Below, piece by piece: positions 6,162 through 54,424 of a stretch of DNA of 57,680 nucleotides. The translations under genes were made by a program, and so were the position numbers. This DNA comes from Clostridiales bacterium (GTDB lineage Bacteria > Bacillota > Clostridia > Christensenellales > JAISNN01). The DNA lies in assembly GCA_031273825.1 (NCBI GenBank), contig JAISRB010000055.1:1-57680 (forward strand). Direction: 5' to 3'. The stretch's first letter is position 1; the number at the start of each line of letters is the position of its first letter. The notes beneath the pieces were generated by a model, which had not been told where the DNA came from, did not search any database, and saw nothing but the letters and a program-made list of their open reading frames with translations.

Positions 6162-6767
6162 TTAACGCCTATAAAACCTTTCGTCCGTGTTGTCTATCCA
6201 TTCGCCGTCTATGAGTCTACAGCTAACAAGCCACGTGTTTTTACTGATGCGCTGCATTTCCTCGTCAACGATTTGTAGGCGACCTTCATTAACTGCCCCG
6301 ACTACCATCCCGCAAGCAATTTCCCGCTCAATATTGGGAGCGACATAAATGAATGTATCGGCTATAAATTTATATTTTTTCTTTATCCATTTACACAGCG
6401 ACATATATTGTTTATATATCGGATTATCATATGAGCTTTTGTCAATCCATATTCTGCCGTTACTTACTATATTGATTTCTCCAACCTTCGTATAAATCCG
6501 AGGGGTTGAATATTCAACAACCTGATTGTCTAAAGGCAGATAAATATCATGTTTTTCAGGTTTATAAAGTATTTTGTCTATATCCTCAATCGAAAGTCGA
6601 TATTGATTGCCAAACTCGCCGCAATCAATTTTCGTTACAGATTTATAGCAACTATGATCTATCGGTGGTCTGTCGCAATCATATATCTTTAGTCCGGACT
6701 CGATAACAAAATTCCTAAACTCGTTCATATCCTCTTGCGACTGCAAAAAATTGATTTGCTTACCCAT
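6162..6767 (-). CDS. Hypothetical protein, tandem paralog A (possible immunity-type protein)
   Basis: 201-aa ORF. It shares MGKQI-FLQSQEDM-EF, GR-WID--SYD-PIYKQ and IACG...QIVDEEM...CRLIDGE--DNTDERFYRR with the neighbouring ORF. Confidence 0.75.
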   Translation of the reverse strand: MGKQINFLQSQEDMNEFRNFVIESGLKIYDCDRPPIDHSCYKSVTKIDCGEFGNQYRLSIEDIDKILYKPEKHDIYLPLDNQVVEYSTPRIYTKVGEINIVSNGRIWIDKSSYDNPIYKQYMSLCKWIKKKYKFIADTFIYVAPNIEREIACGMVVGAVNEGRLQIVDEEMQRISKNTWLVSCRLIDGEWIDNTDERFYRR

Positions 6768-6787
6768 TTTTCCCCCGCACGGTATAC

Positions 6788-7384
6788 TTAATCCCGCCTA
6801 TAAAACCTTTCGTCCGTGTTGTCCACCAATTCGCCGTCTATGAGTCTACAATTACAGAGCCATGTCTTTCTGCAAACCGTTTTCATTTCCTCATCGACTA
6901 TTTGTATTGATCCGGAATTAACGGCGGCAATCACCCTACCGCAAGCAATATCCTCGGTCATATGGGGAGCGATATAGGCTTCGGAAATATACGTATAATT
7001 TTTCTTTATCCATCTTCGCAATTTTTCAAATTGCTTATATATCGGATAATCATACGACTCGGAGTCAATCCATAATCTTCCCCAATCCAAAATATCCGTT
7101 TCACCTTTTTTTTGATATTTTCGCGGAGCACTATACTCTATAATTTTACTAGGATTTAGAGAATAAATAGTATACTTCGCCTCATAAAGAAGTATTTCGT
7201 TCATTTTTTCTAGCGATAAATAATATGTGTCGTTAAATTTAACATCCTCTGCAAGTTTATAGCAGTCGGAACTTATCGGCGGTCTTTTTTTACAAACGCA
7301 TACATTTAATCCAATTTCGGCGATAACATCCGTAAACTCTTTCATGTCCTCTTGCGATTGTAAGAATCTTATTTGTTTTCCCAT
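6788..7384 (-). CDS. Hypothetical protein, tandem paralog B
   Basis: 198-aa ORF. By eye about half of the positions are identical to 6162..6767. It is on the same strand with a 20-nt gap. Confidence 0.75.
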   Translation of the reverse strand: MGKQIRFLQSQEDMKEFTDVIAEIGLNVCVCKKRPPISSDCYKLAEDVKFNDTYYLSLEKMNEILLYEAKYTIYSLNPSKIIEYSAPRKYQKKGETDILDWGRLWIDSESYDYPIYKQFEKLRRWIKKNYTYISEAYIAPHMTEDIACGRVIAAVNSGSIQIVDEEMKTVCRKTWLCNCRLIDGELVDNTDERFYRRD

Positions 7385-7399
7385 ATGCGCACCTATAGG

Positions 7400-7672
7400 C
7401 TAAGTCCGCCGAGCGCGGCTTGCGGACTTTGTTTTCCGACTAAGCCGTCTTTTTTTCCCGTCCGTGTCGAGCGTCTGCGCCTCGACATACTCCGTCTTAG
7501 ACGGCATTTGAGCAACCTCTATCCCCGTCAGCTCATGCTTAGTCCCGAGCGTCACGCCGACCGTCACCCCCGCCGTCAACAAAACAAAGCACGCCGCAAC
7601 GAGAATCGCCGCCAATCGATTCCCGATATAAAAATATTTGATTTTATTAAGTAGATTTTTTATGATTATCAT
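7400..7672 (-). pseudogene. Probable 5' remnant of a surface-protein gene
   Basis: A signal-anchor (LAAILVAACFVLLTAGVTVGV) is followed by the start of an Ig-like module (LTGIEVAQMPSKTEYVEAQTLDTDG). The ORF then runs into an Arg/Lys/Ser-rich tail and a stop. Confidence 0.35.
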
Positions 7673-7735
7673 ATTCTCCGCCTCATAAAATAGGAATATT
7701 CCCCTAACATTATATCACATCTCATTACATTATCG

Positions 7736-8119
7736 CTAATCTTTTTGATATAAAATATCACAATCGCCGTCTACAAAGCCGTAAGCCACTACCTCGGCTT
7801 TTTTTAGTTTTTCGGCATATTTCCCTTCCTCCAAGTAGTCGGCAATAAAGGTTTGTATCAGTTTCAAACACTCCTCCCATTCCGCGTCCAGACTAAAATA
7901 ATATTCATTGTCGTCATTACGGCTTGCATACGTTTCCGCGCCGCCCGCATTCCAATCGGCGTCGTATTCGTCATATTTATCAAACGCCGTAAGCTCCACC
8001 GAATAGTTTTCATCTCCGGCGTTCTCATATATGTTAAAGCAAAACGCCGCCGTCTCTAAATTAAACGACTCTAACACCCCGTCTAACCACTTGTCAAATC
8101 CTCTTTGTAGTTCTTTCAT
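7736..8119 (-). CDS. Small acidic protein, immunity-protein-like
   Basis: 127-aa ORF rich in Asp/Glu, lying in the gene array downstream of the toxin. No family recognised. Confidence 0.6.
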   Translation of the reverse strand: MKELQRGFDKWLDGVLESFNLETAAFCFNIYENAGDENYSVELTAFDKYDEYDADWNAGGAETYASRNDDNEYYFSLDAEWEECLKLIQTFIADYLEEGKYAEKLKKAEVVAYGFVDGDCDILYQKD

Positions 8120-8139
8120 ATTACCCTCCGTTTTTCAGC

Positions 8140-8769
8140 TTATACGGTTTCAATAAGATGAAATGAAAAACCGTGAAACTTATTTTTAGTAAAGACGTTC
8201 TTAAAGCGTTCCGATACAAAAAAGTGCCATGTCCCATTAAATGTTTCCTCGGTCGGCGCAAGTTTAAACACATCTAAACCATCAATCGCCTTTTGGTTAA
8301 GAACATATTTAAGTGGCGTTTTCATTTTTCCGCGAAAACTAACTCTTTCGTCATTGATAGAATATCGCTCATACACCGAATGCTCATAATTGAATGCATT
8401 ATCAACTAATTTCAAGACGTTGGCAATACAAAAACCCTCTAACAATTCATTTTTCGACGTATATACGTCGATAGGAATATATTGAATGTCCTCAATGCCG
8501 GCCTCGTTTAAAGCGCGAACCAACCTCCTTGAAAAAATCGGCACCATATCGGAATTTTGCAATACATCATCCGGCTCTCCGTCATCCGCCTCATCGGCGG
8601 AACGAAATATTATTTTTTTATCAATCGCTTCAAATGGTTTACCTATTGAGAATATTTTTCTCGCAAGATGCCATTTATCCCATATCCTCAATTCTACTAA
8701 GTTCGTTTCACTGCAAATTAACGGATTTCGTACCGTTTTATCACAAAAGATCGTGCGATAGTATTGCAT
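8140..8769 (-). CDS. Imm11/DUF1629-like immunity protein (recall-based)
   Basis: 209-aa ORF. The pattern PDDVLQNSDMVPIFSRRLVRALNEAGIEDIQYIPIDVY...FKL...FFVSERFKNVF resembles DUF1629 immunity proteins of polymorphic toxin loci. Confidence 0.55.
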   Translation of the reverse strand: MQYYRTIFCDKTVRNPLICSETNLVELRIWDKWHLARKIFSIGKPFEAIDKKIIFRSADEADDGEPDDVLQNSDMVPIFSRRLVRALNEAGIEDIQYIPIDVYTSKNELLEGFCIANVLKLVDNAFNYEHSVYERYSINDERVSFRGKMKTPLKYVLNQKAIDGLDVFKLAPTEETFNGTWHFFVSERFKNVFTKNKFHGFSFHLIETV

Positions 8770-8903
8770 TTTTGCACCTCTACTTATTTCAGATAACCAA
8801 CTTTGGTATAGATAGGAATTTTTATGATGTCAAAAGTATAGTTGTGAGCTTTAATTGCATGCTCTTTGTATTCGTTAAATAATTTTATGATATCCATATT
8901 CCC

Positions 8904-9497
8904 TCACTTAAACGATAGTTCTATTTCTTCGCGATTATACTCAAATACCCAATCCGAGTATTTGTTATAAATCGTACGGCGTATTGTCGTATCTAAAATA
9001 ACCACATCACAACCTCTTTCATCATAAATGTTAATTGCGCATTTTTGATTTACATCTACTAAAAACAACTGAGAATCCAGTTTCATTTCATAGGCGCGAC
9101 TCAAAAGAACTTTAAGTACATCCTCATTGTTATTTATTATATATACTCTTGCTTTTTGCATAACTTGATAGTCTTCGTCTTCGGCTTTTGACATAAACGT
9201 GTAAACGAATCGAGATTTGTTATTCTCTCCTAATAAATTTGAAATTGTTTTTATACAGCGCACTTCTGCATCCGTAATCTGAACAGCTATCAGTTTATCA
9301 GAAAAAAACATATCATTACAAAGGCTAAGAATGAAGCTCATTATATTTTTTTCTTCATATTGCCCATGTTCCGCAATCTCAAAGCGAATTGACCTGCCTA
9401 AATTATAATAATATAATGGCATTTCAATCCAAATGTCCTCGGTAAGTTGCCGATACAAGCGTTTTAAATTTTTAAAATCATCCATCACTGTCGCCAC
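8904..9497 (-). CDS. Probable cognate immunity protein (DUF3885-like, recall-based)
   Basis: 197-aa ORF whose start codon directly abuts the toxin stop (9497/9498). The C-terminal INIYDERGCDVVILD...YNKYSDWVFEYNREEI resembles DUF3885. Confidence 0.65.
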   Translation of the reverse strand: MATVMDDFKNLKRLYRQLTEDIWIEMPLYYYNLGRSIRFEIAEHGQYEEKNIMSFILSLCNDMFFSDKLIAVQITDAEVRCIKTISNLLGENNKSRFVYTFMSKAEDEDYQVMQKARVYIINNNEDVLKVLLSRAYEMKLDSQLFLVDVNQKCAINIYDERGCDVVILDTTIRRTIYNKYSDWVFEYNREEIELSFK

Positions 9498-12400
9498 CTA
9501 AAAGAGTCTTTTAATAATCTCAAACAACTTGCCTGCCTGACTGGAATGTTTATTGATAATCAGTTTTCCAGCCGCATCGGCATCGCCAAGTAATTTTAAA
9601 TACTTGCCGCCATGTTCCTCTAATATTTTTAGCGAAGAACCGCCATGCCCGGAGATATCATCTACCAAATAAACGCCATTTGGTTGCTTGTATGCTGTTA
9701 CAACTTTACCGCCCTGCGCTTTATATCTAACCGCAGCTGTAGCATCCTTTTTAATCCAACACGCCGCATTGTGAACCAACACTCCGTCATTATCACCGAC
9801 AAAGTAATTATGATTACCGTCAACCTCGAAGTTATAAACCTTAACGGGCTTTTCTAATATCTCATGCTGAATAGCTTCAACAACAACCTTTTGCCCATTA
9901 ACGTTGACGAGAATATCTCCCGCTCTTAAATCCTCGGCAGAAATCCATGCGCCGTTCGCAAAGAATTTATGTCCCGGCGTGGCAACTATCTCCTGTCCGT
10001 CGGAGGTCGTTATTTTTGTAAGCTCCGTTACTGTATTCTCAAATGTTTGGAGTACCCTTTTGTTTTCGACTTGCCCTATGGTTTCGTTATAACTCTTTAC
10101 GTAATCGCCTACCTTTATATCCTCTATCGCTTTTGTTGAACCGCTTGCTAATACTACGGCAGTACCCGCTACAAAGCAGAATTTTATCTTACTCAACGCC
10201 TTGCCCACGCCGTGGATTACCACGCCCGTGATAAAGCCGACCGTAAAGGCCTTTAATATATCCTCTATGCTGCCGCCCTCTGCCCATGTCATTGCGGCCT
10301 CCGTGCCGCCCTGCAATAAGCCCGCGCCGAGCCAGCCTATGCCCGGAATCGCGGCAAGCGCGCCCGACACCGCCGCTATACTTACGCGCACCCAATTTAT
10401 GTCTTTTATCTTTTTGCCTTGAACGACCGTCTGCATGAATATTTCCATGCCCGCACCGATAAACGCGCCCATGATATACGGCGCGGCGGCGGTTGCTATT
10501 CCGCAAGATACCACACTGAGAACGCCTATTATTATAACGCCCGTGAGGACTGCCCCGACCGCAAGAGCCGCGCCCGCAAGCCTGTCAAGCCATGTCGCTT
10601 TATCCTCTTCCTCTTGCGGAAAATCAAGCACGGACAAATTTCCGTTCTCGTCGACCCAATAATACTGATTCGGGCCGACCATTCGCTCCATTTGGTAGAA
10701 TTCCTCAACGTCAATCCCTAACAAGCTCTCGTCTTGATTGCTCAAATAATAAGCGTCAAGCGCGGAATAGCTGATATACACAAAATTCATTGTGTCCACG
10801 GTAAAGCCGTTCGCGGTTTGCTCCGCGATATACCTCTCATATTCGCCCTTAGCAATCACGGGGTCAAGTAAGGTGTTGAGCGAAGTTGCGCTAACATTGT
10901 ATGCCGCGCCTAAATCGGGGTCAAAAACATTGCGTCCGTCGTCATAGCTATACACCGCGCCGTACTCCGGATTGTATACGCTCTCGTCGGCGGCAGAAGT
11001 ATACAATACTTCCGTTCCGGTTACGCTATACACGACATATTGTCCGTCCGCGACGTAGTGACACGGACCGTAGCTTTCGGTGAAGCTCAATATGTAGCCG
11101 TAGGCTACCGTTTCTATACCTTCGTCCGATTGCTCGCCGTCCGGCTCTTGCGCGTATGCGTCTATTATATAAACTCCGTTCTCTATATCCTCTTCGGTTA
11201 TCTCGGCTTGCCGCGGGAACGCGACAAAGCCCGCGCCGAAGTATATTGTTTCGTCGCTCTCCTCCCCGCTCTCGTAAGCTTCGGCGTAGTCGGAATACCC
11301 CAAGCCCAAAACCTCCGCGCCGCCCTGCAATAGGGCTTTTGCCGGAAACACGTCGTAGCCCAAGGAATACAAATCGAGCATGATAAGCGCGTATAAAAAC
11401 GCCTCCCCGTCGGAAATGTCAAGCGCATTGTCTTGACCGCCCGCCTCACCCGACGCATTCACCGCGCTCATAAAGGTAGCTATTACTTCATCCTTTGTCG
11501 GTTTGTTTTCGATTTCGGAATTGCCAAATTCTAATCCGTTAAACAACGACGCGTCGGAATAGGTCTGCTCCGTCTGCGCGGTTGTTTCTTGTTGTCCCGC
11601 TTTGATTAAGCCTTGCCACGCTCCGAGCCTATCCCAATCGCCGAACGCGCTCAGCGCGAACAGCGCAACGACAAGCGCAAGCGCGGTGACCGTCGAAAAC
11701 GAACCGAGCTTTGCGAAACCGACCTTTTTTGCTCTCTTTGGCTTTAGCTCAAATGAAACCAAGCGCATATTCTCCGCCGTGACGGGCGGTTTGCAGGCGG
11801 TTCTATTCTTAATTTGACCGACTAAAGCCGACCCGAATAAGCCCTGTCTTTCGCGTCTTTTGGCGGCGATATATACTATAGCCAAAGCGAATACTGCAAA
11901 AAGCGTCGCGAGCAAGCCCGCTTGCGATTGACTTGACAAGCTCAAGCCGCTTTCCGCCGCGGCCGCGGTTCCGCTCCCATACGGCGACGCCGTTCCCGCC
12001 GCCGCGCTTTGCCCCTGCGCTCCGCCCGTCGCTCTCGCTGTCCAAATCGCCTCAAGCATGATTTTACCGCCAGCGTTTTCGGGAACTGTCATTGTTCCGC
12101 CCGTATAAATTTTCCCGGAAATCGACGTCGTTCTCCACACCCAGCCGACAAGCGTATACCCAGCCCTTGTCGGATTCGGCATGGCAAGCGCCGCCCCCGC
12201 GAAGCCTTGCGCAAACGTCGGGTCAAGCGTCCCGTCGACAAAATGAACGCGCGTCCGCCCTCCCGTACCGTTTTCTAAGCCGTCAAGCGAAACGTCGCCG
12301 TTCCTTATCCACAGCGCGTCTAAGCGCATAGCCGTCACGTTGGCAAGGCTTGTTATCTGTCCGTAATATACCTTGCCGACTCCCGCGCTTTCCTCTAAAT

Positions 12401-13586
12401 ACCACCCGAAAAAGGTGAAGCCCGACCGCGTCGGGAACGGCAAAAGCACCTTTTCGCCGGCGTGAGCCGTTATCGTCTGATAGAGATTGCCGTCGTAAAG
12501 AGAAATATTCGTTTCAAGATAATTCCACACGGCAACGAACGTCGGGCTTGCCGTAGTCGGTGTAAACGCGCCGCTATAGACCGCTCCGCCGTATTCCCAG
12601 CCGCCGAATGCCCAACCGTCTTTTTGCGCCGTCGGAAGCTCTATCGGCGTTCCGATTTCTACCTTTATCGACGGTATAGATCCGCCGCCGTCCGTGTCAA
12701 AATTGAGGTAGGTATATCGTTGCGTGACCTGTTGCCAAATATAGAGCGTACCGCTTCTGTCGGGCGTAAATTTGCCGTTCGTGATAAGCGTATCGTCATA
12801 AACCCAACCGTCAAAGACAAACAATTCGTTAGAAAGCGTAGGAATAGGCAATTCGATTTCTTGCCCGGCAAACGCCCGGTAGTAGGTCGTTATCGTTTCG
12901 TCCTCAAATTCCAATTCAAGATAAATATCGGCGTATCCTACGGGATTGTCGATTATCACCTCAAAAGAAAAATCGTTGCCGAGCCTGTCGACCAAAGTAA
13001 AGCTATATACTCCGCCCTCCGCAAACCAAATGTCCGCGACCTCATCGAAGGTATAGATCCGCGTATTTCCGTCCTTTGTAATCTTGACTATGCTATATGG
13101 GTCAAGCTCGTTGACCAAAGCCTTTAGAATAAAGCCGTGCGCGTAAACCGTCGCGGCGTTGCTCTTGCCGATTGTCCGCTCGGTCAATATTCCGTCGCGG
13201 AAAATTTCGAATACCGCCTCTCCCGTCATGTCTCCCGGACGGATATACACCGCCTCATATTCGCTGAATTCTCCGAAAACGTTGGTTTCTCTCACGGTAT
13301 AGATTCCCGTCGGCGCGTTGACTAACCCAAGCTGATATTCGACCGAAACGCCGTAGAGAATGTCGTACCGCGTTTCCGTTCCTTTGAGCGTCAAACTTAC
13401 GCTCTCGCTCTCAAAGCCGCCGATATGCAAAAACGCGAACTCCAACACGCCCTCCTCTATGTCGCCCGTCTCCGGCGAAACATAGCGGTATTTGCGTCCG
13501 TTCAACGACGGCAAACCGGCTTTCATATATTCCTGCTCGTCGTCGTTAAGGAAAACGATAACGTCGCGGTCAAAGCTCATCTCCAA
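9498..13586 (-). CDS. Polymorphic toxin: B-repeat region / TM cluster / Hint domain / C-terminal toxin tip. The ORF may be chimeric.
   Basis: 1362-aa ORF with four InlB-type (Listeria-Bacteroides) repeats (FDGWVYDD, FGGWEYGG, FFGWYLEE, LVGWVWRT). A pre-toxin TM cluster is followed by the Hint domain CFVAGT...GHKFF...VLVHN and an 89-aa tail. The first codon is TTG, and an ATG lies at 13580. Confidence 0.85.
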   Translation of the reverse strand: MEMSFDRDVIVFLNDDEQEYMKAGLPSLNGRKYRYVSPETGDIEEGVLEFAFLHIGGFESESVSLTLKGTETRYDILYGVSVEYQLGLVNAPTGIYTVRETNVFGEFSEYEAVYIRPGDMTGEAVFEIFRDGILTERTIGKSNAATVYAHGFILKALVNELDPYSIVKITKDGNTRIYTFDEVADIWFAEGGVYSFTLVDRLGNDFSFEVIIDNPVGYADIYLELEFEDETITTYYRAFAGQEIELPIPTLSNELFVFDGWVYDDTLITNGKFTPDRSGTLYIWQQVTQRYTYLNFDTDGGGSIPSIKVEIGTPIELPTAQKDGWAFGGWEYGGAVYSGAFTPTTASPTFVAVWNYLETNISLYDGNLYQTITAHAGEKVLLPFPTRSGFTFFGWYLEESAGVGKVYYGQITSLANVTAMRLDALWIRNGDVSLDGLENGTGGRTRVHFVDGTLDPTFAQGFAGAALAMPNPTRAGYTLVGWVWRTTSISGKIYTGGTMTVPENAGGKIMLEAIWTARATGGAQGQSAAAGTASPYGSGTAAAAESGLSLSSQSQAGLLATLFAVFALAIVYIAAKRRERQGLFGSALVGQIKNRTACKPPVTAENMRLVSFELKPKRAKKVGFAKLGSFSTVTALALVVALFALSAFGDWDRLGAWQGLIKAGQQETTAQTEQTYSDASLFNGLEFGNSEIENKPTKDEVIATFMSAVNASGEAGGQDNALDISDGEAFLYALIMLDLYSLGYDVFPAKALLQGGAEVLGLGYSDYAEAYESGEESDETIYFGAGFVAFPRQAEITEEDIENGVYIIDAYAQEPDGEQSDEGIETVAYGYILSFTESYGPCHYVADGQYVVYSVTGTEVLYTSAADESVYNPEYGAVYSYDDGRNVFDPDLGAAYNVSATSLNTLLDPVIAKGEYERYIAEQTANGFTVDTMNFVYISYSALDAYYLSNQDESLLGIDVEEFYQMERMVGPNQYYWVDENGNLSVLDFPQEEEDKATWLDRLAGAALAVGAVLTGVIIIGVLSVVSCGIATAAAPYIMGAFIGAGMEIFMQTVVQGKKIKDINWVRVSIAAVSGALAAIPGIGWLGAGLLQGGTEAAMTWAEGGSIEDILKAFTVGFITGVVIHGVGKALSKIKFCFVAGTAVVLASGSTKAIEDIKVGDYVKSYNETIGQVENKRVLQTFENTVTELTKITTSDGQEIVATPGHKFFANGAWISAEDLRAGDILVNVNGQKVVVEAIQHEILEKPVKVYNFEVDGNHNYFVGDNDGVLVHNAACWIKKDATAAVRYKAQGGKVVTAYKQPNGVYLVDDISGHGGSSLKILEEHGGKYLKLLGDADAAGKLIINKHSSQAGKLFEIIKRLF
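9501..9767 (-). other. C-terminal 89-aa toxin tip, family unassigned
   Basis: AACWIKKDATAAVRYKAQGGKVVTAYKQPNGVYLVDDISGHGGSSLKILEEHGGKYLKLLGDADAAGKLIINKHSSQAGKLFEIIKRLF lies immediately after Hint HN. Confidence 0.6.
9768..10178 (-). other. Hint (intein-like autoprocessing) domain of the toxin
   Basis: 137 aa from Cys (codon 10176-10178) of KF|CFVAGTAVV to the terminal VLVHN. Confidence 0.8.
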
Positions 13587-14004
13587 AACCGATTCTCCCT
13601 TGTCTGTTTATACTTGGTAACAGTATACCAAATCAACAATAATTTGTCAATAATTTCATTTGTGGTTTTAATATTTCAATTCAGAGTCATTCATTTGCGT
13701 AATTTGTGCCTTCATTTATGATTTATGGTAATTTTAGTTGATATTAAAAGTTTCAAAATAAGAGGTTTTTCGATTTTACGATTATACAATTTTACAAAAA
13801 CAATATAAAGCAATATGTGTAGACGCCGCTCGGAGATAGTCTGCCGCAATTTTCCCGTTTTATTATTTGACAAGGTATTATTTTAATATTGACTAACCGC
13901 AATCACCGCCCCCTAATTCCTACTAACCGCCGCCCGCCTTTCACCGGCTTTTTTGTTCCAAAAATTTTTTTTGCAACTTTTTTTAAAAACATGCCTTATT
14001 TTAT

Positions 14005-14033
14005 TTGACATTTATCCGAGCGAATAATATAAT
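14005..14033 (+). promoter_or_regulatory. Consensus sigma-A type promoter upstream of glnN
   Basis: TTGACA (14005-14010), a 17-nt spacer, then TATAAT (14028-14033). Confidence 0.6.
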
Positions 14034-14051
14034 ATTTATAAAGTAGCAAGG

Positions 14052-14089
14052 GCGCTAATGGTTTTTTTCGTTAGCGCTTTTAACTTTTT
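14052..14089 (+). terminator. Leader hairpin plus U-tract (possible attenuator) in the glnN 5' UTR
   Basis: GCGCTAA (14052-58) / TTAGCGC (14071-77) with a 12-nt loop, followed by TTTTAACTTTTT. It sits between the promoter and the ATG at 14198. Confidence 0.4.
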
Positions 14090-14197
14090 ATGAGGGCTTT
14101 CGATTTTTATCACAATCTAAGCCCGCGTAAGGTTTAAAAAAAAAGACAAATTATCTATCAAAACAACATTATCATCTAAAAGGAGAAGTATCAAATT

Positions 14198-48127: not shown

Positions 48128-51100
48128 CTACGCCAGGTGATCCCTATAATGGTCCGCTCCCCATTCCAAAAACGCTTCTACGGCGTTATCATAAGTATGA
48201 TAAGGATCGGTCCCGTCCCATACGTTTACGTCGATCTGCGTCCAACCGGCTACAACGCCGGACGTTGCCTGCCAATCGGTGCTTCTATAGTCTATATAAG
48301 CGTTCTTTATCCAGCTAAAATAATTTTCGGTGTCCATGATCATATCGTTCATAACGAGCAGACGCTGCGTCAGGAAGTTTATCATATAGGCGTAATGATT
48401 GACAAACGTCAATTTATTTCCCTCGGTAAGCTCATCTAAATTAAGCCCCGTCAGCGTGTTAAACCACAACGTCTCGTTGGCAAGCGCGGCATCCATTATG
48501 TGCGCCTGATATTCTTGCAAAAAGACTATGTGCTCCTCGAACACGTCGTGTAACAGGTTCTCCCATCTCGCCTTCATAAGGGTGCGGAAATCCTCAAACT
48601 CGAGCATCTTTGCAAACCAGTTTCTCGTCGATATCCACGTATACGAGGCGTTGTCCGGGCTCTCGCTAGGGTTGACGACCGAGTTATAGCTCCAGAGTCC
48701 CGGATTTGTCGAACCCTTATATTCGGCGACAAACATATCGAAAGGACCGCCTACCGACCAGTCGATATCCCAGACCGGCCCCATTTTTAGCTTTCCGTCC
48801 GCGCTCTTGCTCATAAACACGCTCTTGCCGTAAACGTCGCAATTCATAAGCCACTCTTGAATGAGATAGTAGTCTATAAACGAATCCATATCGACAAGCT
48901 CGTTAAGCTTAGCCCAGACCTCCGGATCATAAGGGTGGCGCATGAGATAGTCTATATACTGAACGTAAGAATATATATACTTAAACTGCGTCTCCGTCAG
49001 GCCGTGCTCGTCAATGCTCGGGTATGCCACCTTGGCGACGACGTAGCCGTTCATGGTGCTAAGCGTAAACGTCGCGTCGTAGGTTGCCGCGTTGTAGTAG
49101 TTAAAATAGAACGCTCCGGTAGAAGGATTTTGCGCGAACGGATCGGCCGCCGTCGCGTCAAGCTCGACGAGGAAGGCAAAGTCGCTCCGGTCCGCCGGGT
49201 CAAACGTCGGCTCGTACATCGAGCCGCCCTCGGCTATCTCGTCCTCGTCCATCTCTATTCCCAGTCTCTGCTCCTGAATCTGATCCGTCAGCATATATAT
49301 GCCCTGATAAACACCGTTGATAAACACCTCGACGTGGTAGCCTATTCTGCCCGTGCTTTGCGTCTCGAGCTTTTCGGCAAGGCTAAGCGCGGCGTAGTCT
49401 CTGACGACCGCCGCGTCGAGCGCGGACGCCAAAAGCACCCAGCTCTTAAAGGCCTCGCTGCCAAAGAAGGAGGTCTTGGTGTCAAACTTGATGCGATAAG
49501 GCTTTTTTGCCCTGCTTGCGGTGGTGTTGCCTCTTACTCTTATGCCTCCGACCTTTCCGTCAAAATAGACGTATTCGTCCTCGACAAATTTGAAGCTCGA
49601 AAGCGTATAGTCGTCGTTGTCCGCGTCGCTTGTCTTAGGCGGAATCGGAACGTTTCCGTCGGTGGTTATATAGATTATCGGAAGTATTCCCGCCGTTATC
49701 GAATAAGGCGGCGTGTCAAATATCTCCGTCCATGCTCCGTCTGCGAGGCTTCTCGGGCGGTATTTGCCTACGTCCGCAGACGACCAGTCGATAAATTCCG
49801 CGTCTACGGCGTTGTCGTCGGTGTCGGCGAAGTCTATGCGCCTCAAGGCCTTTTGCTTTGACTGACCGGAAGGCGCGGCCGCGCCCTCAAAGGCGTCTAT
49901 GCTGTCGTTTTTGCCCGTGCCCTTGGCGGCGAGCATATCTATATAGCCGTAGGCCTTTGCGCCCTCTCCGTCGATATTAAAAGGATTCTCGACGGTCAAA
50001 ACCTCGGTGTTAGTCATCAAAACGACCTTGACCGACTTGTTTTGTAGGGTTATGCCGCTCCAGTTGAGGTCGGCCTCGGTTATTCTCAAATTTGCCGGGT
50101 CGGCCATGCCGGTGTTGGCGTAATCGGTCAGTCTTATAAGGAAGGAGGTCCTCGCCGGAATACTCCCGAAAAGCTCGATCATCTGCCACTCGGTTCCGCT
50201 GCTTGCCGCCTGCACAGACCAGCCGGCTATCGAGACGGCTACGTCGTTAGGGTTATAAAGCTCGATAAAGGAGTGTGAGCCCATAGCGTCCGTCTTGTCG
50301 GCCACGCCGTATATCTGATTGATTATAATCATGTCTTGCGCCGAATATTTTGCGTTCAGCGTGACGTTGTGAGACGGCATCGCCGTTCCGAATTGATAAG
50401 GAACCGTGTCCGGACCGTCGGCCTCGTACCAATATTCAAACACGTGTCTATAAGAATAAGGAATATAAGAGATCGACGTCGTCGCCGCTCCGACGGCGTA
50501 GCTGTTTTGGGCGACTATCTCGCCCTCGCTCGCGTATTTGAGGTAATAGTCAAATTTTGCGTATACGTTGACGGCCTTAGTCAGACGCGCCGAAACGTAT
50601 TCCGTGCCGTAAAACGGTACTGTCCAAACGTCCTCGTCATAATACCACCCGACAAACTCGCCGGAGTCCGCGGTTGCTTGCAAATTTGGCAGCGGAATTG
50701 TCTCTCTGCCGGAGGTCATATAGGTTGATACAAGCTTGTTTTCGGCGTAAAATCTGACGGGATATTGGTCAAACGCGCCCCATTTGGCTCTAAGTATGAG
50801 ATTTCTCGCCGGCATAACGTCGGTATAAGGTTGGGTCTCGTCGGTCTCATACCAATAATAAAACGCCAAATCGTCACGGGCAGGCGGAGACCACGGCGTG
50901 ATTGCAGCGCCCGAGACATAGGCGACCTTGTGCGTTCCCGAGCCGTATTCATAGGTCAGGTTGTAGTTAAACTTAGCGTAAACCCTTAGGTCGGAGGTCA
51001 ACGCCGACGTCTTATAAACGCTCGCGTCAAACGGAGTGCTTATGTTGCCGTTGATATACCAGCCGATAAAATTGCCGTATACCGCTCCGGGCGTAGTCGG

Positions 51101-51280
51101 CAATTTTATTTCCTCATTGCCCGCGGTCTCGACTGTGTCGTAGACCTCGTTTTCGACGATAAACTCGATTTTGTAAACCGTCGGCTTCTTTTTAGTCCAC
51201 GTCCAATCGCAACCCGCCGCTGCAAGCGCAAAGCAGGTCAGCAACACGGCCGCCAAAACTAATTTTGTTACCTTTTTCAT
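48128..51280 (-). CDS. Secreted (probable lipo-)protein: B-repeats, lamin-tail domain and CotH-family domain
   Basis: Signal peptide MKKVTKLVLAAVLLTCFALAAAGC. InlB-type repeats (FIGWYING, FYYWYETD, FVGWYYDE). LTD (SFIELYNPNDVAVSIAGWSV). CotH-like (YHVEVFINGVYQGIYML, GPVWDIDWSVGG). Confidence 0.85.
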   Translation of the reverse strand: MKKVTKLVLAAVLLTCFALAAAGCDWTWTKKKPTVYKIEFIVENEVYDTVETAGNEEIKLPTTPGAVYGNFIGWYINGNISTPFDASVYKTSALTSDLRVYAKFNYNLTYEYGSGTHKVAYVSGAAITPWSPPARDDLAFYYWYETDETQPYTDVMPARNLILRAKWGAFDQYPVRFYAENKLVSTYMTSGRETIPLPNLQATADSGEFVGWYYDEDVWTVPFYGTEYVSARLTKAVNVYAKFDYYLKYASEGEIVAQNSYAVGAATTSISYIPYSYRHVFEYWYEADGPDTVPYQFGTAMPSHNVTLNAKYSAQDMIIINQIYGVADKTDAMGSHSFIELYNPNDVAVSIAGWSVQAASSGTEWQMIELFGSIPARTSFLIRLTDYANTGMADPANLRITEADLNWSGITLQNKSVKVVLMTNTEVLTVENPFNIDGEGAKAYGYIDMLAAKGTGKNDSIDAFEGAAAPSGQSKQKALRRIDFADTDDNAVDAEFIDWSSADVGKYRPRSLADGAWTEIFDTPPYSITAGILPIIYITTDGNVPIPPKTSDADNDDYTLSSFKFVEDEYVYFDGKVGGIRVRGNTTASRAKKPYRIKFDTKTSFFGSEAFKSWVLLASALDAAVVRDYAALSLAEKLETQSTGRIGYHVEVFINGVYQGIYMLTDQIQEQRLGIEMDEDEIAEGGSMYEPTFDPADRSDFAFLVELDATAADPFAQNPSTGAFYFNYYNAATYDATFTLSTMNGYVVAKVAYPSIDEHGLTETQFKYIYSYVQYIDYLMRHPYDPEVWAKLNELVDMDSFIDYYLIQEWLMNCDVYGKSVFMSKSADGKLKMGPVWDIDWSVGGPFDMFVAEYKGSTNPGLWSYNSVVNPSESPDNASYTWISTRNWFAKMLEFEDFRTLMKARWENLLHDVFEEHIVFLQEYQAHIMDAALANETLWFNTLTGLNLDELTEGNKLTFVNHYAYMINFLTQRLLVMNDMIMDTENYFSWIKNAYIDYRSTDWQATSGVVAGWTQIDVNVWDGTDPYHTYDNAVEAFLEWGADHYRDHLA

Positions 51281-51481
51281 TTAGTCTCTCCTTTTTCGAT
51301 TCTATTTTTTTTGATTTGACTTTACCTCGTTTGTTTTTTCATAAGTTTTTTTGGGGGTGTTTTTTCGTTTGTTTGTTTGAGGATTTTTCGTTTGTTTGCT
51401 TAATATTTCGTTTGTTTTCCGATTACCTCTTTTGTTTTGCCGTTTTCTGTCTATATAGCTATCTGATATATCGTACTTGTT

Positions 51482-51508
51482 GTAGGGGCGGACGCCCTCG
51501 GCCGCCCG
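51482..51508 (+). repeat. REP-like palindromic element
   Basis: GTAGGGGCGGACGCCCTCGGCCGCCCG. Confidence 0.8.
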
Positions 51509-51599
51509 TCGTTCCCCGAATTTGTGTATGCCGTATTGTTTATGTACGTTGTCGTTGTTTTACGTGCGTCACGGATTGTTTATGTGCATTGCCGCTGTC

Positions 51600-51628
51600 T
51601 GCGGGCGGCCGGGGGCGTCCGCCCCTAC
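51600..51628 (-). repeat. REP-like palindromic element (inverted copy)
   Basis: The reverse complement, GTAGGGGCGGACGCCCCCGGCCGCCCGCA, is identical to the 47053-47081 core. Confidence 0.8.
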
Positions 51629-51670
51629 GATTCCGTTGTGTTTTATGTTGTGTGCGATATCGTTGCATTC

Positions 51671-54313
51671 TTAGGCGTTTTTGCTTTTTGTTATATTTGA
51701 CTTATGAACGACGGGCATTACGGCGGCATGGAACGCAGTCTCGCCGACGTTGTCAACCCACATTACGGGCAGGACGTTAAACCAATTTCCGTTGATGAGG
51801 TTTGGTTGAGTGATGAGTACGTCGTTGCTAGCCTTACCCTTTTGGAGCAGTGTCTCGCCGCTGAGAAGTGCAATCAAGCTTGCCGGGTTACTGTAGCTAA
51901 ATTGCGGCGTGCGCTGCGCCTGATTTATGCGCAAACGATTTGAATGCGACGAAAAATCGCTGTTGTATTGGGTATCTATATAGGTCATCAAGGTATTTAT
52001 ATCGTCGGTGTTTGCCCACGGTGCTATGACGTTGCCGCCATTTCTGTGATATACCTTGCTGTTATTGATGATGTTATCAAAGCCGTCCTCGCCGTCCTCG
52101 GAATCGGCCATCAGCACCACCGCTCCCGCCTTGTCGGTCACCGCGTCGCCGTAGGTCAGAGACCCGAGCGGTTTGGTCGAGGCGTTATAAGGAACGTAGT
52201 CAAAGAGCGATCTGCCGCCGGCCTCATGCTTGACGCTGTCGATAAAGTTATACAATGCCTGCAGGCTCGAGCCGTTGGTGTAAACCCTTTGTATGTCAAA
52301 GACTATCAGCTCTCTCGGGTGATCATACATAAACTGCAATGCGTCTCTCAGATAAGACTCAAAGGTGCTTGAGATAAGCCCGTGCTCGGTATACCATACT
52401 CCGTTTGAATGAACCAGCCGCACGTCATAGAGCCTTACGCCGTTTTTGGCTAAGTCGGACGCGCCGAGGCTTTGAGCTTTTGAAAGCCTCGCCGTAACAC
52501 TTTTTACCGTGCCTTCAAATGCCCCGAAACTACTCCCGTATTGAAGAAAATTCGGGTCAACCGGATTCCACTGATTGCCGCTCGCAATATTATGAGTAAA
52601 CGCGTCGTGCGCTCCCAGCATGGCTATATCGACTACCCTGATATTTTTGTTGAATATGCTGTTTGCCATAATATTAGAGTAGTAGTCCGTGTCCGTCGCA
52701 GTAAAGCCCGTCTCCGTCACCCACCTTGCGTAGAGCGTCTTTTGCGACGCCGTTCCTGTCGGAGTCCACGGGAAAAGAATCGGATAAGCATCGGAGGTTG
52801 ACTCGACCCACCCCAAAAACAGGCTTGAGGTCTTTGTCGGGTGCGTCGGCAGCGAGGCCGACTGCCCCGCGTAGACGGTTTGGTTAGGAATATCGCCCGC
52901 GCCGCCGTTTTTGTCAAATATGACGGTATAATAGAACGTCCACTTGGCGTAGAGCGTTATGTCGCCCGTAGGAGTATAAGGAAAGGTCACCTCGGAGCCG
53001 CTATAGCTTGACGACTCATACCACCCGTCAAAGCGGTAGCTTGCCAAAACCGGGTTGTCGGGCTTAGCTATCGACGAGCCGGCTCTGACATTTTGAGAGG
53101 CGACTCCCGACCCTCCCGTCGAGTCAAAGGTGACGGTATAAAGCTCCGTCCACTTGGCGTAGAGGGTTATGCTTCCCGTCGGGGTGTATGGCGAGTTTAT
53201 CTTTGAGCCGCCGCCGTCTTGACCGGTAAACCACCCGTCAAAGGCGTAGCCGGTTCTCACCGGCGTCGGCAGCTCTATGCTGCCGCCGGCTCTGACCGAT
53301 TGAGAGGATATCGGCGACCCGTTCATAAAATCAAGGGCGACGATATAGAGCGGAGCCGTCCGTTTGGCATAAAAAACCGCGTCGCCCCACGCTATATAAA
53401 AGTCGAGACCGTAGGCCGGAACGCCCTCAAAGCTTTGAGACGAAAACCACCCCTCAAAATCGGAATTGCCCGACAAAACGTTCGACAGCAATATCGACGT
53501 TCCGACGGTCGTAGCAATCGAGTCGACGGCAACGTCGCCGTCTTTAAAGGTTATAGTACACCGTTGATACCATTTTGCATATAGCGTTATGTCGTTTGCC
53601 GCCGTGTAATTCCACAAGGCCTTGTTGGCAAAGCCCGCGTCGGTATACCAGCCGTCAAATATGTAGCCGTCCTTTTGAAGCTTCGGCAACATAAACGCAG
53701 ACTCGGCGGAAACATTCATATAAAAGGTTCCGTCGAGGGGGTCGACAAAGGTGACCGTGCTTTTTTGGGCAAGCTTGGCATAAAGCCTGATATCCTTTGA
53801 CGGCTTATAAGGCAACCTTACGGCTAAGCCTAAGCAAGCCGGGTCGGTAAACCACCCCTCGATAATAGAGTCGCCGCTGACGAGGGGCAAATCGGCAGAT
53901 TCGCCTATAGGTACGACTATTGTTGCAGTCAAAGCCCCGCCTATATAAAGACCGACCGCGTATGAATTGACAAATTTGGCATAAAGCGTGACGCTCTTAT
54001 CGGGTATAAAAAACCAATCCTCGGCCGTTCCGCTAAGGTCGGGGGCGGCAAACCACCCCTCAAATATGTAGCCCGGTCTATAAATCGTAGGCAACAAGAT
54101 TGACGTTCCCGCGCCGACGCTGACCGGCTCGACGGGCGAGCCGCCGTTGCTGTCAAACGAGACGGTATAAACCTCCGCCGCATAAGAAACGCCGCCGCCG
54201 AACGGGCTTTTTTCCCCGACAAAATAAGCGCCTGCCGCCATTAACGACAAGAACGCCGCCGCCAATATGAGCGCGACTTTTCTTTTATCGGCAAATTTCA
54301 CTTTTTCTCTCAT
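51671..54313 (-). CDS. Surface protein: signal-anchor, about 7 B-repeats, PI-PLC X-domain-like C-terminus
   Basis: 880 aa. Repeats of the type VTFDSNGGS...GY.FDGWF...YTPT..ITLYAKW. C-terminal DIAMLGAHDAFTH, VRLYDVRL and WYTEHGLIS. Confidence 0.85.
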   Translation of the reverse strand: MREKVKFADKRKVALILAAAFLSLMAAGAYFVGEKSPFGGGVSYAAEVYTVSFDSNGGSPVEPVSVGAGTSILLPTIYRPGYIFEGWFAAPDLSGTAEDWFFIPDKSVTLYAKFVNSYAVGLYIGGALTATIVVPIGESADLPLVSGDSIIEGWFTDPACLGLAVRLPYKPSKDIRLYAKLAQKSTVTFVDPLDGTFYMNVSAESAFMLPKLQKDGYIFDGWYTDAGFANKALWNYTAANDITLYAKWYQRCTITFKDGDVAVDSIATTVGTSILLSNVLSGNSDFEGWFSSQSFEGVPAYGLDFYIAWGDAVFYAKRTAPLYIVALDFMNGSPISSQSVRAGGSIELPTPVRTGYAFDGWFTGQDGGGSKINSPYTPTGSITLYAKWTELYTVTFDSTGGSGVASQNVRAGSSIAKPDNPVLASYRFDGWYESSSYSGSEVTFPYTPTGDITLYAKWTFYYTVIFDKNGGAGDIPNQTVYAGQSASLPTHPTKTSSLFLGWVESTSDAYPILFPWTPTGTASQKTLYARWVTETGFTATDTDYYSNIMANSIFNKNIRVVDIAMLGAHDAFTHNIASGNQWNPVDPNFLQYGSSFGAFEGTVKSVTARLSKAQSLGASDLAKNGVRLYDVRLVHSNGVWYTEHGLISSTFESYLRDALQFMYDHPRELIVFDIQRVYTNGSSLQALYNFIDSVKHEAGGRSLFDYVPYNASTKPLGSLTYGDAVTDKAGAVVLMADSEDGEDGFDNIINNSKVYHRNGGNVIAPWANTDDINTLMTYIDTQYNSDFSSHSNRLRINQAQRTPQFSYSNPASLIALLSGETLLQKGKASNDVLITQPNLINGNWFNVLPVMWVDNVGETAFHAAVMPVVHKSNITKSKNA

Positions 54314-54337
54314 ACGGTCTATTACCCCATCGTTTAT

Positions 54338-54366
54338 ATTATATCACCAAAATCGACGCTTGTCAA
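54338..54366 (-). promoter_or_regulatory. Consensus sigma-A promoter for 51671..54313
   Basis: The minus strand reads TTGACA, a 17-nt spacer, then TATAAT. The -10 ends about 25 nt upstream of the ATG. Confidence 0.6.
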
Positions 54367-54424
54367 TACACAACTTTACAAAACCCGTGACAAAACTAAA
54401 AGCCGATTGCGTTTTTTGACGTTT

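Follow-up and report, generated by a model that had tools for sequence, protein, structure and literature searches.

A giant polymorphic toxin locus of a Clostridiales bacterium with a Hint–tip–immunity cassette probably exchanged by recombination

A contig of 57,680 nucleotides (nt) from a metagenome-assembled genome (MAG) of a Clostridiales bacterium (hereafter the window, meaning the whole stretch of DNA analysed) carries at positions 6162–13586 a gene for a protein of 1362 amino acids (aa; 9498..13586), followed by a row of small open reading frames (ORFs). The locus and its features described below lie on the minus strand. An earlier note on this DNA read the large ORF as a polymorphic toxin and took a change from GC-richer to AT-rich DNA within it as the edge of a cassette, comprising a Hint domain, a toxin tip and immunity genes, that is exchanged onto a constant N-terminal part. 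The question raised by the locus is whether the compositional break marks such an exchange, and whether the DNA on either side of it is of one piece. The explanation favoured here, held as a whole with good confidence, is that the locus belongs to an uncharacterised family of giant polymorphic toxins of Christensenellaceae-like gut Clostridia, that its Hint–tip–immunity cassette was exchanged by recombination, and that the copy in the window has undergone two further losses.

The break was located by a two-segment maximum-likelihood scan of all bases and of the GC content at third codon positions (GC3), with 5000 permutations for significance. Sliding-window GC was 0.50–0.58 at 10.2–12.6 kb vs 0.31–0.44 at 8.0–10.2 kb. 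The all-base change point fell at 10197, and GC3 changed from 0.62 to 0.40 after codon 1131 (10193), with a log-likelihood ratio of 19.1 against a permutation maximum of 11.8 (n = 5000; p ≤ 2e-4). The profile is not flat at 10.2 kb, and the change point at 10193–10197 is in agreement with the switch that had been placed at the first Hint codon (10178). Host genes across the window showed GC3 values of 0.56–0.67; the 5′ part of the toxin gene and the flanking SIS gene (0.62) and type III glutamine synthetase gene, glnN (0.65), were indeed GC-richer, and the identities of both flanking genes were verified. As to the AT-rich tract claimed for 6.16–10.19 kb, the strong break at 10.2 kb stood, while uniformity did not, as the tract is interrupted by a GC content of 0.46–0.47 at 7.2–7.8 kb. 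Its distal change point lies at ∼6345, inside the last downstream ORF.

The step coincides with the start of a PT-HINT/A-type BIL (bacterial intein-like) domain (9768..10178; GC3 0.42), extending from Cys1137 through TPGH to VHN1273. Pfam PT-HINT (PF07591) matched aa 1147–1274 (E 4e-28, 98.8 bits against a cut-off of 27.7), and both intein_Nterm and intein_Cterm of NCBIfam scored above cut-off, so that the ORF does end, as proposed, in a Hint domain followed by an 89-aa tip (aa 1274–1362). The first residue of the domain, Cys1, is codon 1137 (10178), and the VHN motif ends with codon 1273 (9768). The catalytic blocks C1137, T1203-P-G-H1206 and H1272-N1273 are present, and C, TxxH and HN are near-invariant in the alignment of the toxin family (A1). 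The first ∼25 Hint residues (CFVAGTAVVxASGxTKAIEDIxVGD) are common to all copies and offer a putative site for crossover. After the terminal Asn the window protein reads VHN-A-A-C, and across the family the +1 residue is usually not Cys, Ser or Thr; a near-invariant Cys was observed 1–3 residues past the Asn (VHNAAC, VHNSAC, VHNKC, VHNGC; 9759–9767 in the window), which might form a disulphide, serve as a delayed nucleophile or belong to every tip. The window holds a single Hint.

A protein search with Hint plus tip identified short proteins with Hints 90–92% identical to that of the window on L019, a 6.4-kb Joint Genome Institute (JGI) metagenome contig from a sample other than the window's. 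The genes of L019 are arranged in the order of a DMP19-like gene, a 549-aa 5′-truncated copy of the toxin (gene 1), a 243-aa protein, a 253-aa ORF composed of leader, Hint and tip, a 180-aa protein, a 241-aa ORF of the same leader, Hint and tip composition, and two small ORFs. Comparison of the window with gene 1 showed 95–98% nucleotide identity over 10915–10198, with the exception of one short variable patch, followed by 88% at 10197–10138 and 53–67% through the remaining Hint and the tip. Alignment of the two orphan leader+Hint+tip ORFs with the window began only at the first Hint codon (10181/10177); the ORFs showed 83–100% nucleotide identity to its Hint at 10167–9808, lost similarity at 9795–9760 and diverged into other tips and immunity genes. 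At the amino acid level, the window Hint was 92.7% and 90.5% identical to the two orphan Hints and 66% identical to that of gene 1, and the window tip was unrelated to the L019 tips. The GC3 of L019 falls in tiers of 0.60, 0.43–0.46 and 0.27–0.30, with the step placed as in the window. Over 244 codons of the body, 28 synonymous and 13 non-synonymous codon differences were counted, which is a purifying pattern. The claim of a cassette, for which an alignment with related loci had been suggested, is upheld by this contig: the 5′ part is conserved and the 3′ part is replaced, with differing tips and immunity genes.

Because L019 carries the same body with a different Hint and tip, together with orphan Hints of the window type, the Hint would act as the homology arm for exchange in this lineage. 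The compositional break at 10.2 kb is, judging from these alignments, a recombination joint, and the junction can be assigned to 10138..10197, around the first Hint codons, where identity to gene 1 passes from 0.95 through 0.88 to 0.67. The composition of the segments before the Hint, within it and in the tip was compared in the window and in eight other family loci for which DNA was available (L001, L002, L003, L005, L011, L012, L015, and L017). The window values of 0.65, 0.42 and 0.38 place the drop at the start of the Hint. Seven of the eight other loci had a body-like GC3 in the Hint, with the drop at its end (for example, 0.58, 0.55 and 0.24 in L001 and 0.53, 0.52 and 0.29 in L012); the eighth, L005, from a low-GC genome, showed no contrast. 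Sequences in A1 are unrelated after the near-invariant VHNxxC. Two junctions are present, not one: the start of the Hint, and its end (VHN|xxC), the point at which one tip replaces another while the Hint stays as it is. Only in the window/L019 lineage does the Hint appear to be part of the cassette.

The window protein and its homologues were analysed by a search across 5.8 billion proteins. The 21 homologues compared were 36–58% identical over body and Hint, and their tips were 10–20% identical and fell into at least seven classes, among them AHH nucleases (PF14412), PF15545, two GIY-YIG-like classes, an HNH-like class and others. Conservation in A1 covers the body as well as the helix cluster and the Hint; Hint identity to the window was mostly 0.51–0.74 (0.42 for P0021). 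Where enough flanking DNA was available, the toxin gene is followed by arrays of small genes, which include Imm11, Imm40 and leucine-rich repeat (LRR) proteins. By its sequences, the family appears to show the pattern that defines polymorphic toxin systems, as described in the available passages of PMC3482391. The homologous loci lie in differing neighbourhoods, and the flanks of L011 and L015/L016 carry a tyrosine integrase, a serine recombinase, a WYL regulator or an SLFN-like helicase; as these neighbourhoods differ and some adjoin recombinase genes, the whole operon may also move between genomes.

The 89-aa putative toxin tip (9501..9767) found no match in Pfam, NCBIfam or PDB sequences, either as a single sequence or as a profile at relaxed thresholds. 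Its AlphaFold model (AF2) is six-stranded and all-beta (pLDDT 84, pTM 0.74), and Foldseek comparison of the model with the PDB gave no significant match (best E 0.027, TM 0.37). Among 1.84 billion representatives searched exhaustively with HMMER, 43 relatives were identified, all matching C-terminally bar three repeat proteins (P0040, P0050, and P0051); these three were discarded as relatives, as their matches to the N-terminal half of the tip look spurious. RHS repeats, PT-TG or PT-HINT were found ahead of the tip domain in 8 of the 10 longer matches scanned with Pfam, and many other matches were short ORFs scarcely longer than the domain itself. The alignment of the tip family (A2) contains invariant Asp, His, Lys, Asp, Gly and Lys residues in the motifs GHGGSxxK, DxD and KH. 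As far as these searches show, this all-beta C-terminal domain family is undescribed.

The ORF next to the tip (8904..9497) encodes a DUF3885 protein (Pfam PF13021, E 1.4e-17). It had been described as abutting the toxin stop codon; its probable start is ATG 9485, with a ribosome-binding site (RBS), AGGTGG, that overlaps the stop, and the two genes are tightly coupled instead. Tips of the KHSS-type subclade were followed by a DUF3885 gene in 5/5 loci (the window, L018, L020, L023, and L025), and in L024, a member of the sister tip clade, the next gene encodes a different protein of 145 aa. The window locus therefore has an immunity candidate downstream that co-varies with the tip, one of the marks of a polymorphic toxin. 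From this co-occurrence we infer that DUF3885 is the candidate cognate immunity protein. No relative of DUF3885 was found in the PDB; in the literature searched it turned up in just two papers, neither of them on toxin immunity as judged by title.

Orphan Hint–tip ORFs were observed on L019 (3039–3800 and 4336–5061) and L018 (207–929). They have their own start codons, which overlap the end of the preceding gene, and a short basic leader with one hydrophobic helix directly ahead of the Hint. As this layout of helix then Hint mimics that of the full-length protein, the orphans may be expressed as membrane-anchored pro-toxins instead of serving as silent spares. One such ORF, P0081, has Ser in place of Cys at Hint position 1. 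Gut and metagenome data hold hundreds of short (200–390 aa) Hint+tip proteins (P0080–P0197); a complete Hint was present in 113 of the top 120, with medians of 87 aa ahead of the Hint and 91 aa for the tip. A hydrophobic stretch precedes the Hint in 73/107 short Hint+tip proteins, and some open with the last part of an RHS core. The lengths of constant region retained form a continuum, with the window gene (1136 aa kept) as its extreme.

The part of the toxin gene that precedes the Hint had been taken as a constant N-terminal part. The body is conserved, as claimed; it is itself truncated by ∼607 residues, and residue 1 of the window protein aligns to residue 608–631 of homologues of ∼2000 aa. 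In NCBI the protein is named “InlB B-repeat-containing protein” (MAG, Clostridiales bacterium), and ∼25 relatives with 36–61% identity come from MAGs of Christensenellaceae/Christensenella and other Clostridia and from the isolate Anaerocaecibacter muris. The complete relatives (n = 20) are all 1863–2037 aa long, and all have a signal peptide and the N-domain. The full-length architecture consists of a signal peptide, an N-domain of ∼570 aa, InlB B-repeats, two helices, an acidic domain of ∼370 aa, a four-helix cluster, PT-HINT and a tip of ∼90–130 aa. The residues missing in the window correspond to the signal peptide and the N-domain, which is conserved and has no Pfam match; a counterpart of this region was not found anywhere in the window. 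The window copy has, by alignment, apparently lost the front third including the signal peptide, and so lacks the secretion or trafficking determinant that marks polymorphic toxins.

From residue 608 onward the family is collinear. In the window, the InlB B-repeat (Listeria–Bacteroides repeat) region spans aa ∼235–520 (12027..12884; Pfam PF09479, E 1e-13), with repeated GW motifs that are invariant in A1. Two membrane helices predicted by hydropathy scan (aa ∼556–574 and 622–640; 11667..11921) flank a basic loop and are followed by the acidic domain of ∼370 aa. A glycine-rich, hydrophobic cluster of about four helices (aa ∼1003–1130; 10197..10580) lies directly before the Hint and is the last GC-rich “constant” segment, to which the near-identity with L019 gene 1 extends. 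Homology to relatives ends at the window start codon, upstream of which lies an AT-rich intergenic region; no homology between the non-coding DNA at 13587–14197 and the upstream regions of relatives was found. A promoter-like site, TTGACA-17-(TG)TATACT, with an extended −10 was called at 13622..13650 by consensus match alone (11/12), and an RBS, AGGGAGA (13594–13600), lies 7 nt ahead of the TTG start at 13586. When metagenomes were scanned with the constant part, no close relative turned up, only L021 at 60%, and a genome scan yielded relatives of at most 57% identity. Looking up the exact sequence of the window protein matched no contig.

Behind the toxin gene, same-strand ORFs of at least 90 aa number six and not five, as had been counted. 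An Imm11-family orphan immunity gene (8140..8769; Pfam PF07791, E 3.6e-12, 46.5 bits against a cut-off of 22.1) encodes a protein with 33–42% amino acid identity to the Imm11 proteins of the arrays in L001, L002, L012 and L015. Next to it, an acidic protein of 127 aa (7736..8119), with no Pfam match, is 39–49% identical to the proteins at the array ends of the same four loci. Counterparts of both genes sit at the distal end of the array in L001, L002, L012 and L015/16; in L015 (10836–11900) and L016 (7294–8358) homologues of the two are fused into one protein of 354 aa, which suggests that Imm11 and the 127-aa protein act together. It is likely from these comparisons that only the first downstream ORF is a candidate for the cognate immunity gene, and that the Imm11 gene and the 127-aa ORF are conserved array-end genes. 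The single Hint+toxin+immunity cassette envisaged by the earlier note could accordingly be retained for the Hint, the tip and the first ORF, and not for the remaining downstream ORFs.

Beyond the array lies an N-terminal stump ORF of 90 aa (7400..7672) with host-like GC3 (0.60), of which ∼54 codons (7457–7618) match residues 13–66 of a 957-aa protein. A membrane-anchored Ig-repeat protein of ∼957 aa with Big_3 and InlB-type repeats follows the array in L002, L003, L012, L015/16 and L021 and, where the DNA reaches (L002, L003, L015/16, and L021), a secreted protein of ∼1072 aa comes next. The rest of the 957-aa gene and the whole of the 1072-aa gene were not found in the window. The place of these deleted giant genes is occupied by two tandem paralogous ORFs of 201 and 198 aa (6162–6767 and 6788–7384), which are 52% identical and AT-rich (GC3 0.37–0.39), with a repeat period of ∼625 nt. 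They are ORFans: no homologue besides each other was found among the 5.8 billion proteins, nor was a Pfam match, nor a DNA match in any related locus. Because a stump with host-like GC3, array genes and unrelated ORFans all lie within it, the tract at 6.16–10.19 kb is composite, consisting of an exchanged Hint–tip–DUF3885 module, older array genes, the stump of a native gene and an unrelated AT-rich insertion or replacement.

The mechanism proposed for the family builds on what is established about polymorphic toxins and about Hint and bacterial intein-like domains, from which the steps of export and cleavage are taken. Sec would export the full-length proteins, whose helices would anchor them in the membrane, and the Hint would lie just past the last helix. 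Once exported, the Hint would cleave itself, with Cys1137 as the N-terminal nucleophile (thioester) and cyclisation of Asn1273 on the C-terminal side. Since the +1 nucleophile is absent, splicing would not be expected, and cleavage would instead release the 89-aa tip. The tip would act as a small enzyme of all-beta fold, probably a toxin of the nuclease or RNase type, which DUF3885 would neutralise in the producer. New Hint–tip–immunity modules would enter by homologous recombination between the resident Hint and a Hint-led orphan cassette (C-terminal displacement). The window copy has undergone two further events: the loss of codons 1 to ∼607, and the loss of most of the downstream 957-aa and 1072-aa genes, with two ORFans now in their place.

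What the window copy still does is a separate matter. As the signal peptide and the operon partner genes are lost, the copy is on balance regarded as an export-impaired remnant with immunity genes that are still useful, a state rated somewhat likelier than that of a working weapon. The competing explanation, which is a fair way less probable and yet a serious contender, is that the truncated gene still encodes a working toxin, transcribed from its own promoter, inserted via its internal helices with TM2 (the second of them) as signal anchor, and with the Hint–tip part shown at the surface and released. The 1362-codon ORF is intact and preceded by the promoter-like TTGACA-17-TGnTATACT and the RBS; the excess of synonymous over non-synonymous changes against L019 (28 vs 13) points the same way, and short ORFs of leader, Hint and tip that have starts of their own and hydrophobic leaders occur in L019 and many other loci, so that the N-terminal two thirds may be dispensable. 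Against this, 20/20 complete homologues keep the signal peptide and N-domain, the InlB-repeat part of 550 aa cannot reach the surface without a signal peptide, and the two conserved giant genes downstream are lost too; promoter-like sites, moreover, are no commoner than in shuffled sequences.

Improbable, though not negligible, is an artefact of metagenome assembly or binning, either at the 5′ truncation or at the 10.2-kb junction. Mis-joins typically arise at repeats such as the Hint sequences, the window comes from a MAG, and Hints repeated at 90% identity in this lineage could mislead an assembler. The window, however, has only one Hint, the reading frame is unbroken across 10.2 kb, and L019, from the other sample, has its GC3 step at the same place; the 13.6-kb end lies in an ordinary AT-rich intergenic region with a promoter-like site and RBS.

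Still less likely is an explanation with no exchange at all, in which GC content fell in place through relaxed selection on codon usage or AT-biased mutation of a fast-evolving 3′ end. Such a process would fit the observation that tips and immunity genes are AT-rich (GC3 0.21–0.35) in every related locus, whatever the GC content of the host, and that the Hint is conserved in amino acid sequence as much as the body. It does not fit a body of 95–98% identity joined to a Hint of 53–67%, when the same Hint is 83–100% identical to the other L019 cassettes, and it fails to account for the break at the Hint end in 7/8 other loci. The notion that the whole AT-rich block is a mobile island put between SIS and glnN by a site-specific recombinase, suggested by integrase or resolvase genes near some homologous loci (L011 and L015), is scarcely credible and was rejected, since a recombinase is absent and DNA of host-like composition, namely the GC-rich body and the stump at 7400–7672, lies inside the supposed island. 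No integrase or transposase had been visible to the earlier note, and none was found within 5.9–14.3 kb, where tRNA-like targets and flanking direct repeats were likewise not found and Rfam gave no match; a repeat search at the locus showed only the tandem ORFan duplication.

Several points weigh against the exchange and remnant explanation preferred here. The decisive comparison rests on a single metagenome contig, L019, and gene 1 of L019, being truncated as well, does not reveal in which direction or when the exchange took place. Throughout the family, tips and immunity genes are low in GC, which could partly reflect mutational bias and not foreign origin. The full gene has no relative closer than 57% amino acid identity, and the activity of the tip is a guess, as neither a fold match nor a sequence match was found. 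The intact ORF with its near-consensus promoter and RBS means that the truncated gene may still be expressed or used, which weakens the remnant part in particular, and on a MAG contig the apparent loss of the 5′ end could come from a join made in assembly.

Judged by the tools used, the families of the carrier and of the tip and the assignment of DUF3885 are undescribed. The principle of diversification is textbook, and the established picture of polymorphic toxins is unchanged. What the locus adds is an example, resolved to the base, of how cassettes are exchanged in a gut anaerobe of the Gram-positive type, in which the Hint would double as the recombination arm, a role earlier noted mainly for Neisseria MafB. 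DUF3885 gains a likely role in immunity, and a new small family of putative toxin domains is defined. The locus also points to a giant surface toxin family with a conserved three-gene context in Christensenellaceae-like bacteria, which are an abundant and poorly studied group of the gut. A bolder and rather doubtful proposal links three things: that the ∼2000-aa proteins and the two giant surface proteins form a new contact-dependent delivery apparatus, that the Hint-led orphans are autonomous pro-toxins, and that the tip is a new all-beta fold with DUF3885 as its antidote.

Elsewhere in the window, outside the toxin locus, three more large surface-type proteins with InlB B-repeats are encoded at 48128–57640 on the minus strand, and the protein at 48128–51280 adds CotH kinase and lamin-tail domains. 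On the plus strand, 14005–14081 contains a perfect consensus promoter (TTGACA-17-TATAAT, 12/12) and immediately after it a terminator-like hairpin with a 14-bp stem, ∼120 nt upstream of glnN. By its layout this region looks like a transcription-attenuation leader, and it has no match in Rfam.

The locus was compared with known systems of similar organisation. Membership in the LXG/WXG toxins of the type VII secretion system was rejected, as LXG and WXG100 matches in Pfam and NCBIfam were absent from the window protein and from the full-length homologues P0003 and P0015. Mobile inteins share the fold and the catalytic blocks (Cys1, TxxH, and terminal His-Asn); unlike them, the window domain has Ala after the Asn and a conserved Cys 1–3 residues later, carries no homing endonuclease and does not sit in a conserved housekeeping protein. 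Being without a +1 nucleophile, it was not assigned to the mobile inteins, cleavage and not splicing being expected. CdiA-CT/CdiI systems resemble the locus in having a large surface protein, a swappable C-terminal toxin with the immunity gene directly downstream, and orphan pairs with a short pre-toxin stretch. Here, however, two-partner secretion, FHA repeats and VENN are absent, the envelope is of another type, and release is predicted to occur via autoproteolysis of the Hint.

In the PT-HINT toxins covered by the available passages of Zhang et al. (2012, PMC3482391), the Hint lies directly before the toxin as a predicted releasing peptidase, toxin–immunity cassettes include Imm11, and a model of cassette recombination is given. 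Sec-type export in the homologues, toxin–immunity pairs and Imm11 are shared with that set, as far as those passages describe it. The carrier architecture found here is not among the delivery types in the same passages, and the 89-aa tip matches no Pfam toxin family. C-terminal displacement in Rhs proteins involves a GC-richer core with compositionally distinct tips and immunity genes (Jackson et al., 2009, PMC2935791; Poole et al., 2011, PMC3150448). As in the present locus, orphan tips there keep a piece of the core as recombination arm, and used immunity genes pile up downstream. In contrast to Rhs, the window protein has no YD/RHS repeats and no PxxxxDPxGL aspartyl-protease junction and lies outside any type VI secretion system context, and the homology arm and the predicted releasing protease are both the Hint domain; membership was rejected, as the 1362-aa protein has no RHS_repeat or RHS match in Pfam at E ≤ 0.1.

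Class 1 MafB of Neisseria appears, by analogy, to be the closest organisational precedent. Its alternative mafB-CT cassettes, located downstream, open with a BIL domain of the A-type; each brings its own start codon and has an immunity gene behind it (Jamet et al., 2015, PMC4287609). This pattern of BIL-led cassettes recurs on L019, and the window junction implies it. The resemblance is one of cassette organisation only, and MafB membership was rejected, since neither the window protein nor the full-length homologues matched the N-terminal DUF1020. The carrier is unrelated, belongs to a Gram-positive-type Clostridium host, has InlB repeats and internal membrane helices and, in the window copy, is 5′-truncated. 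A further difference from MafB is that here an actual recombinant joint at the start of the Hint is documented.

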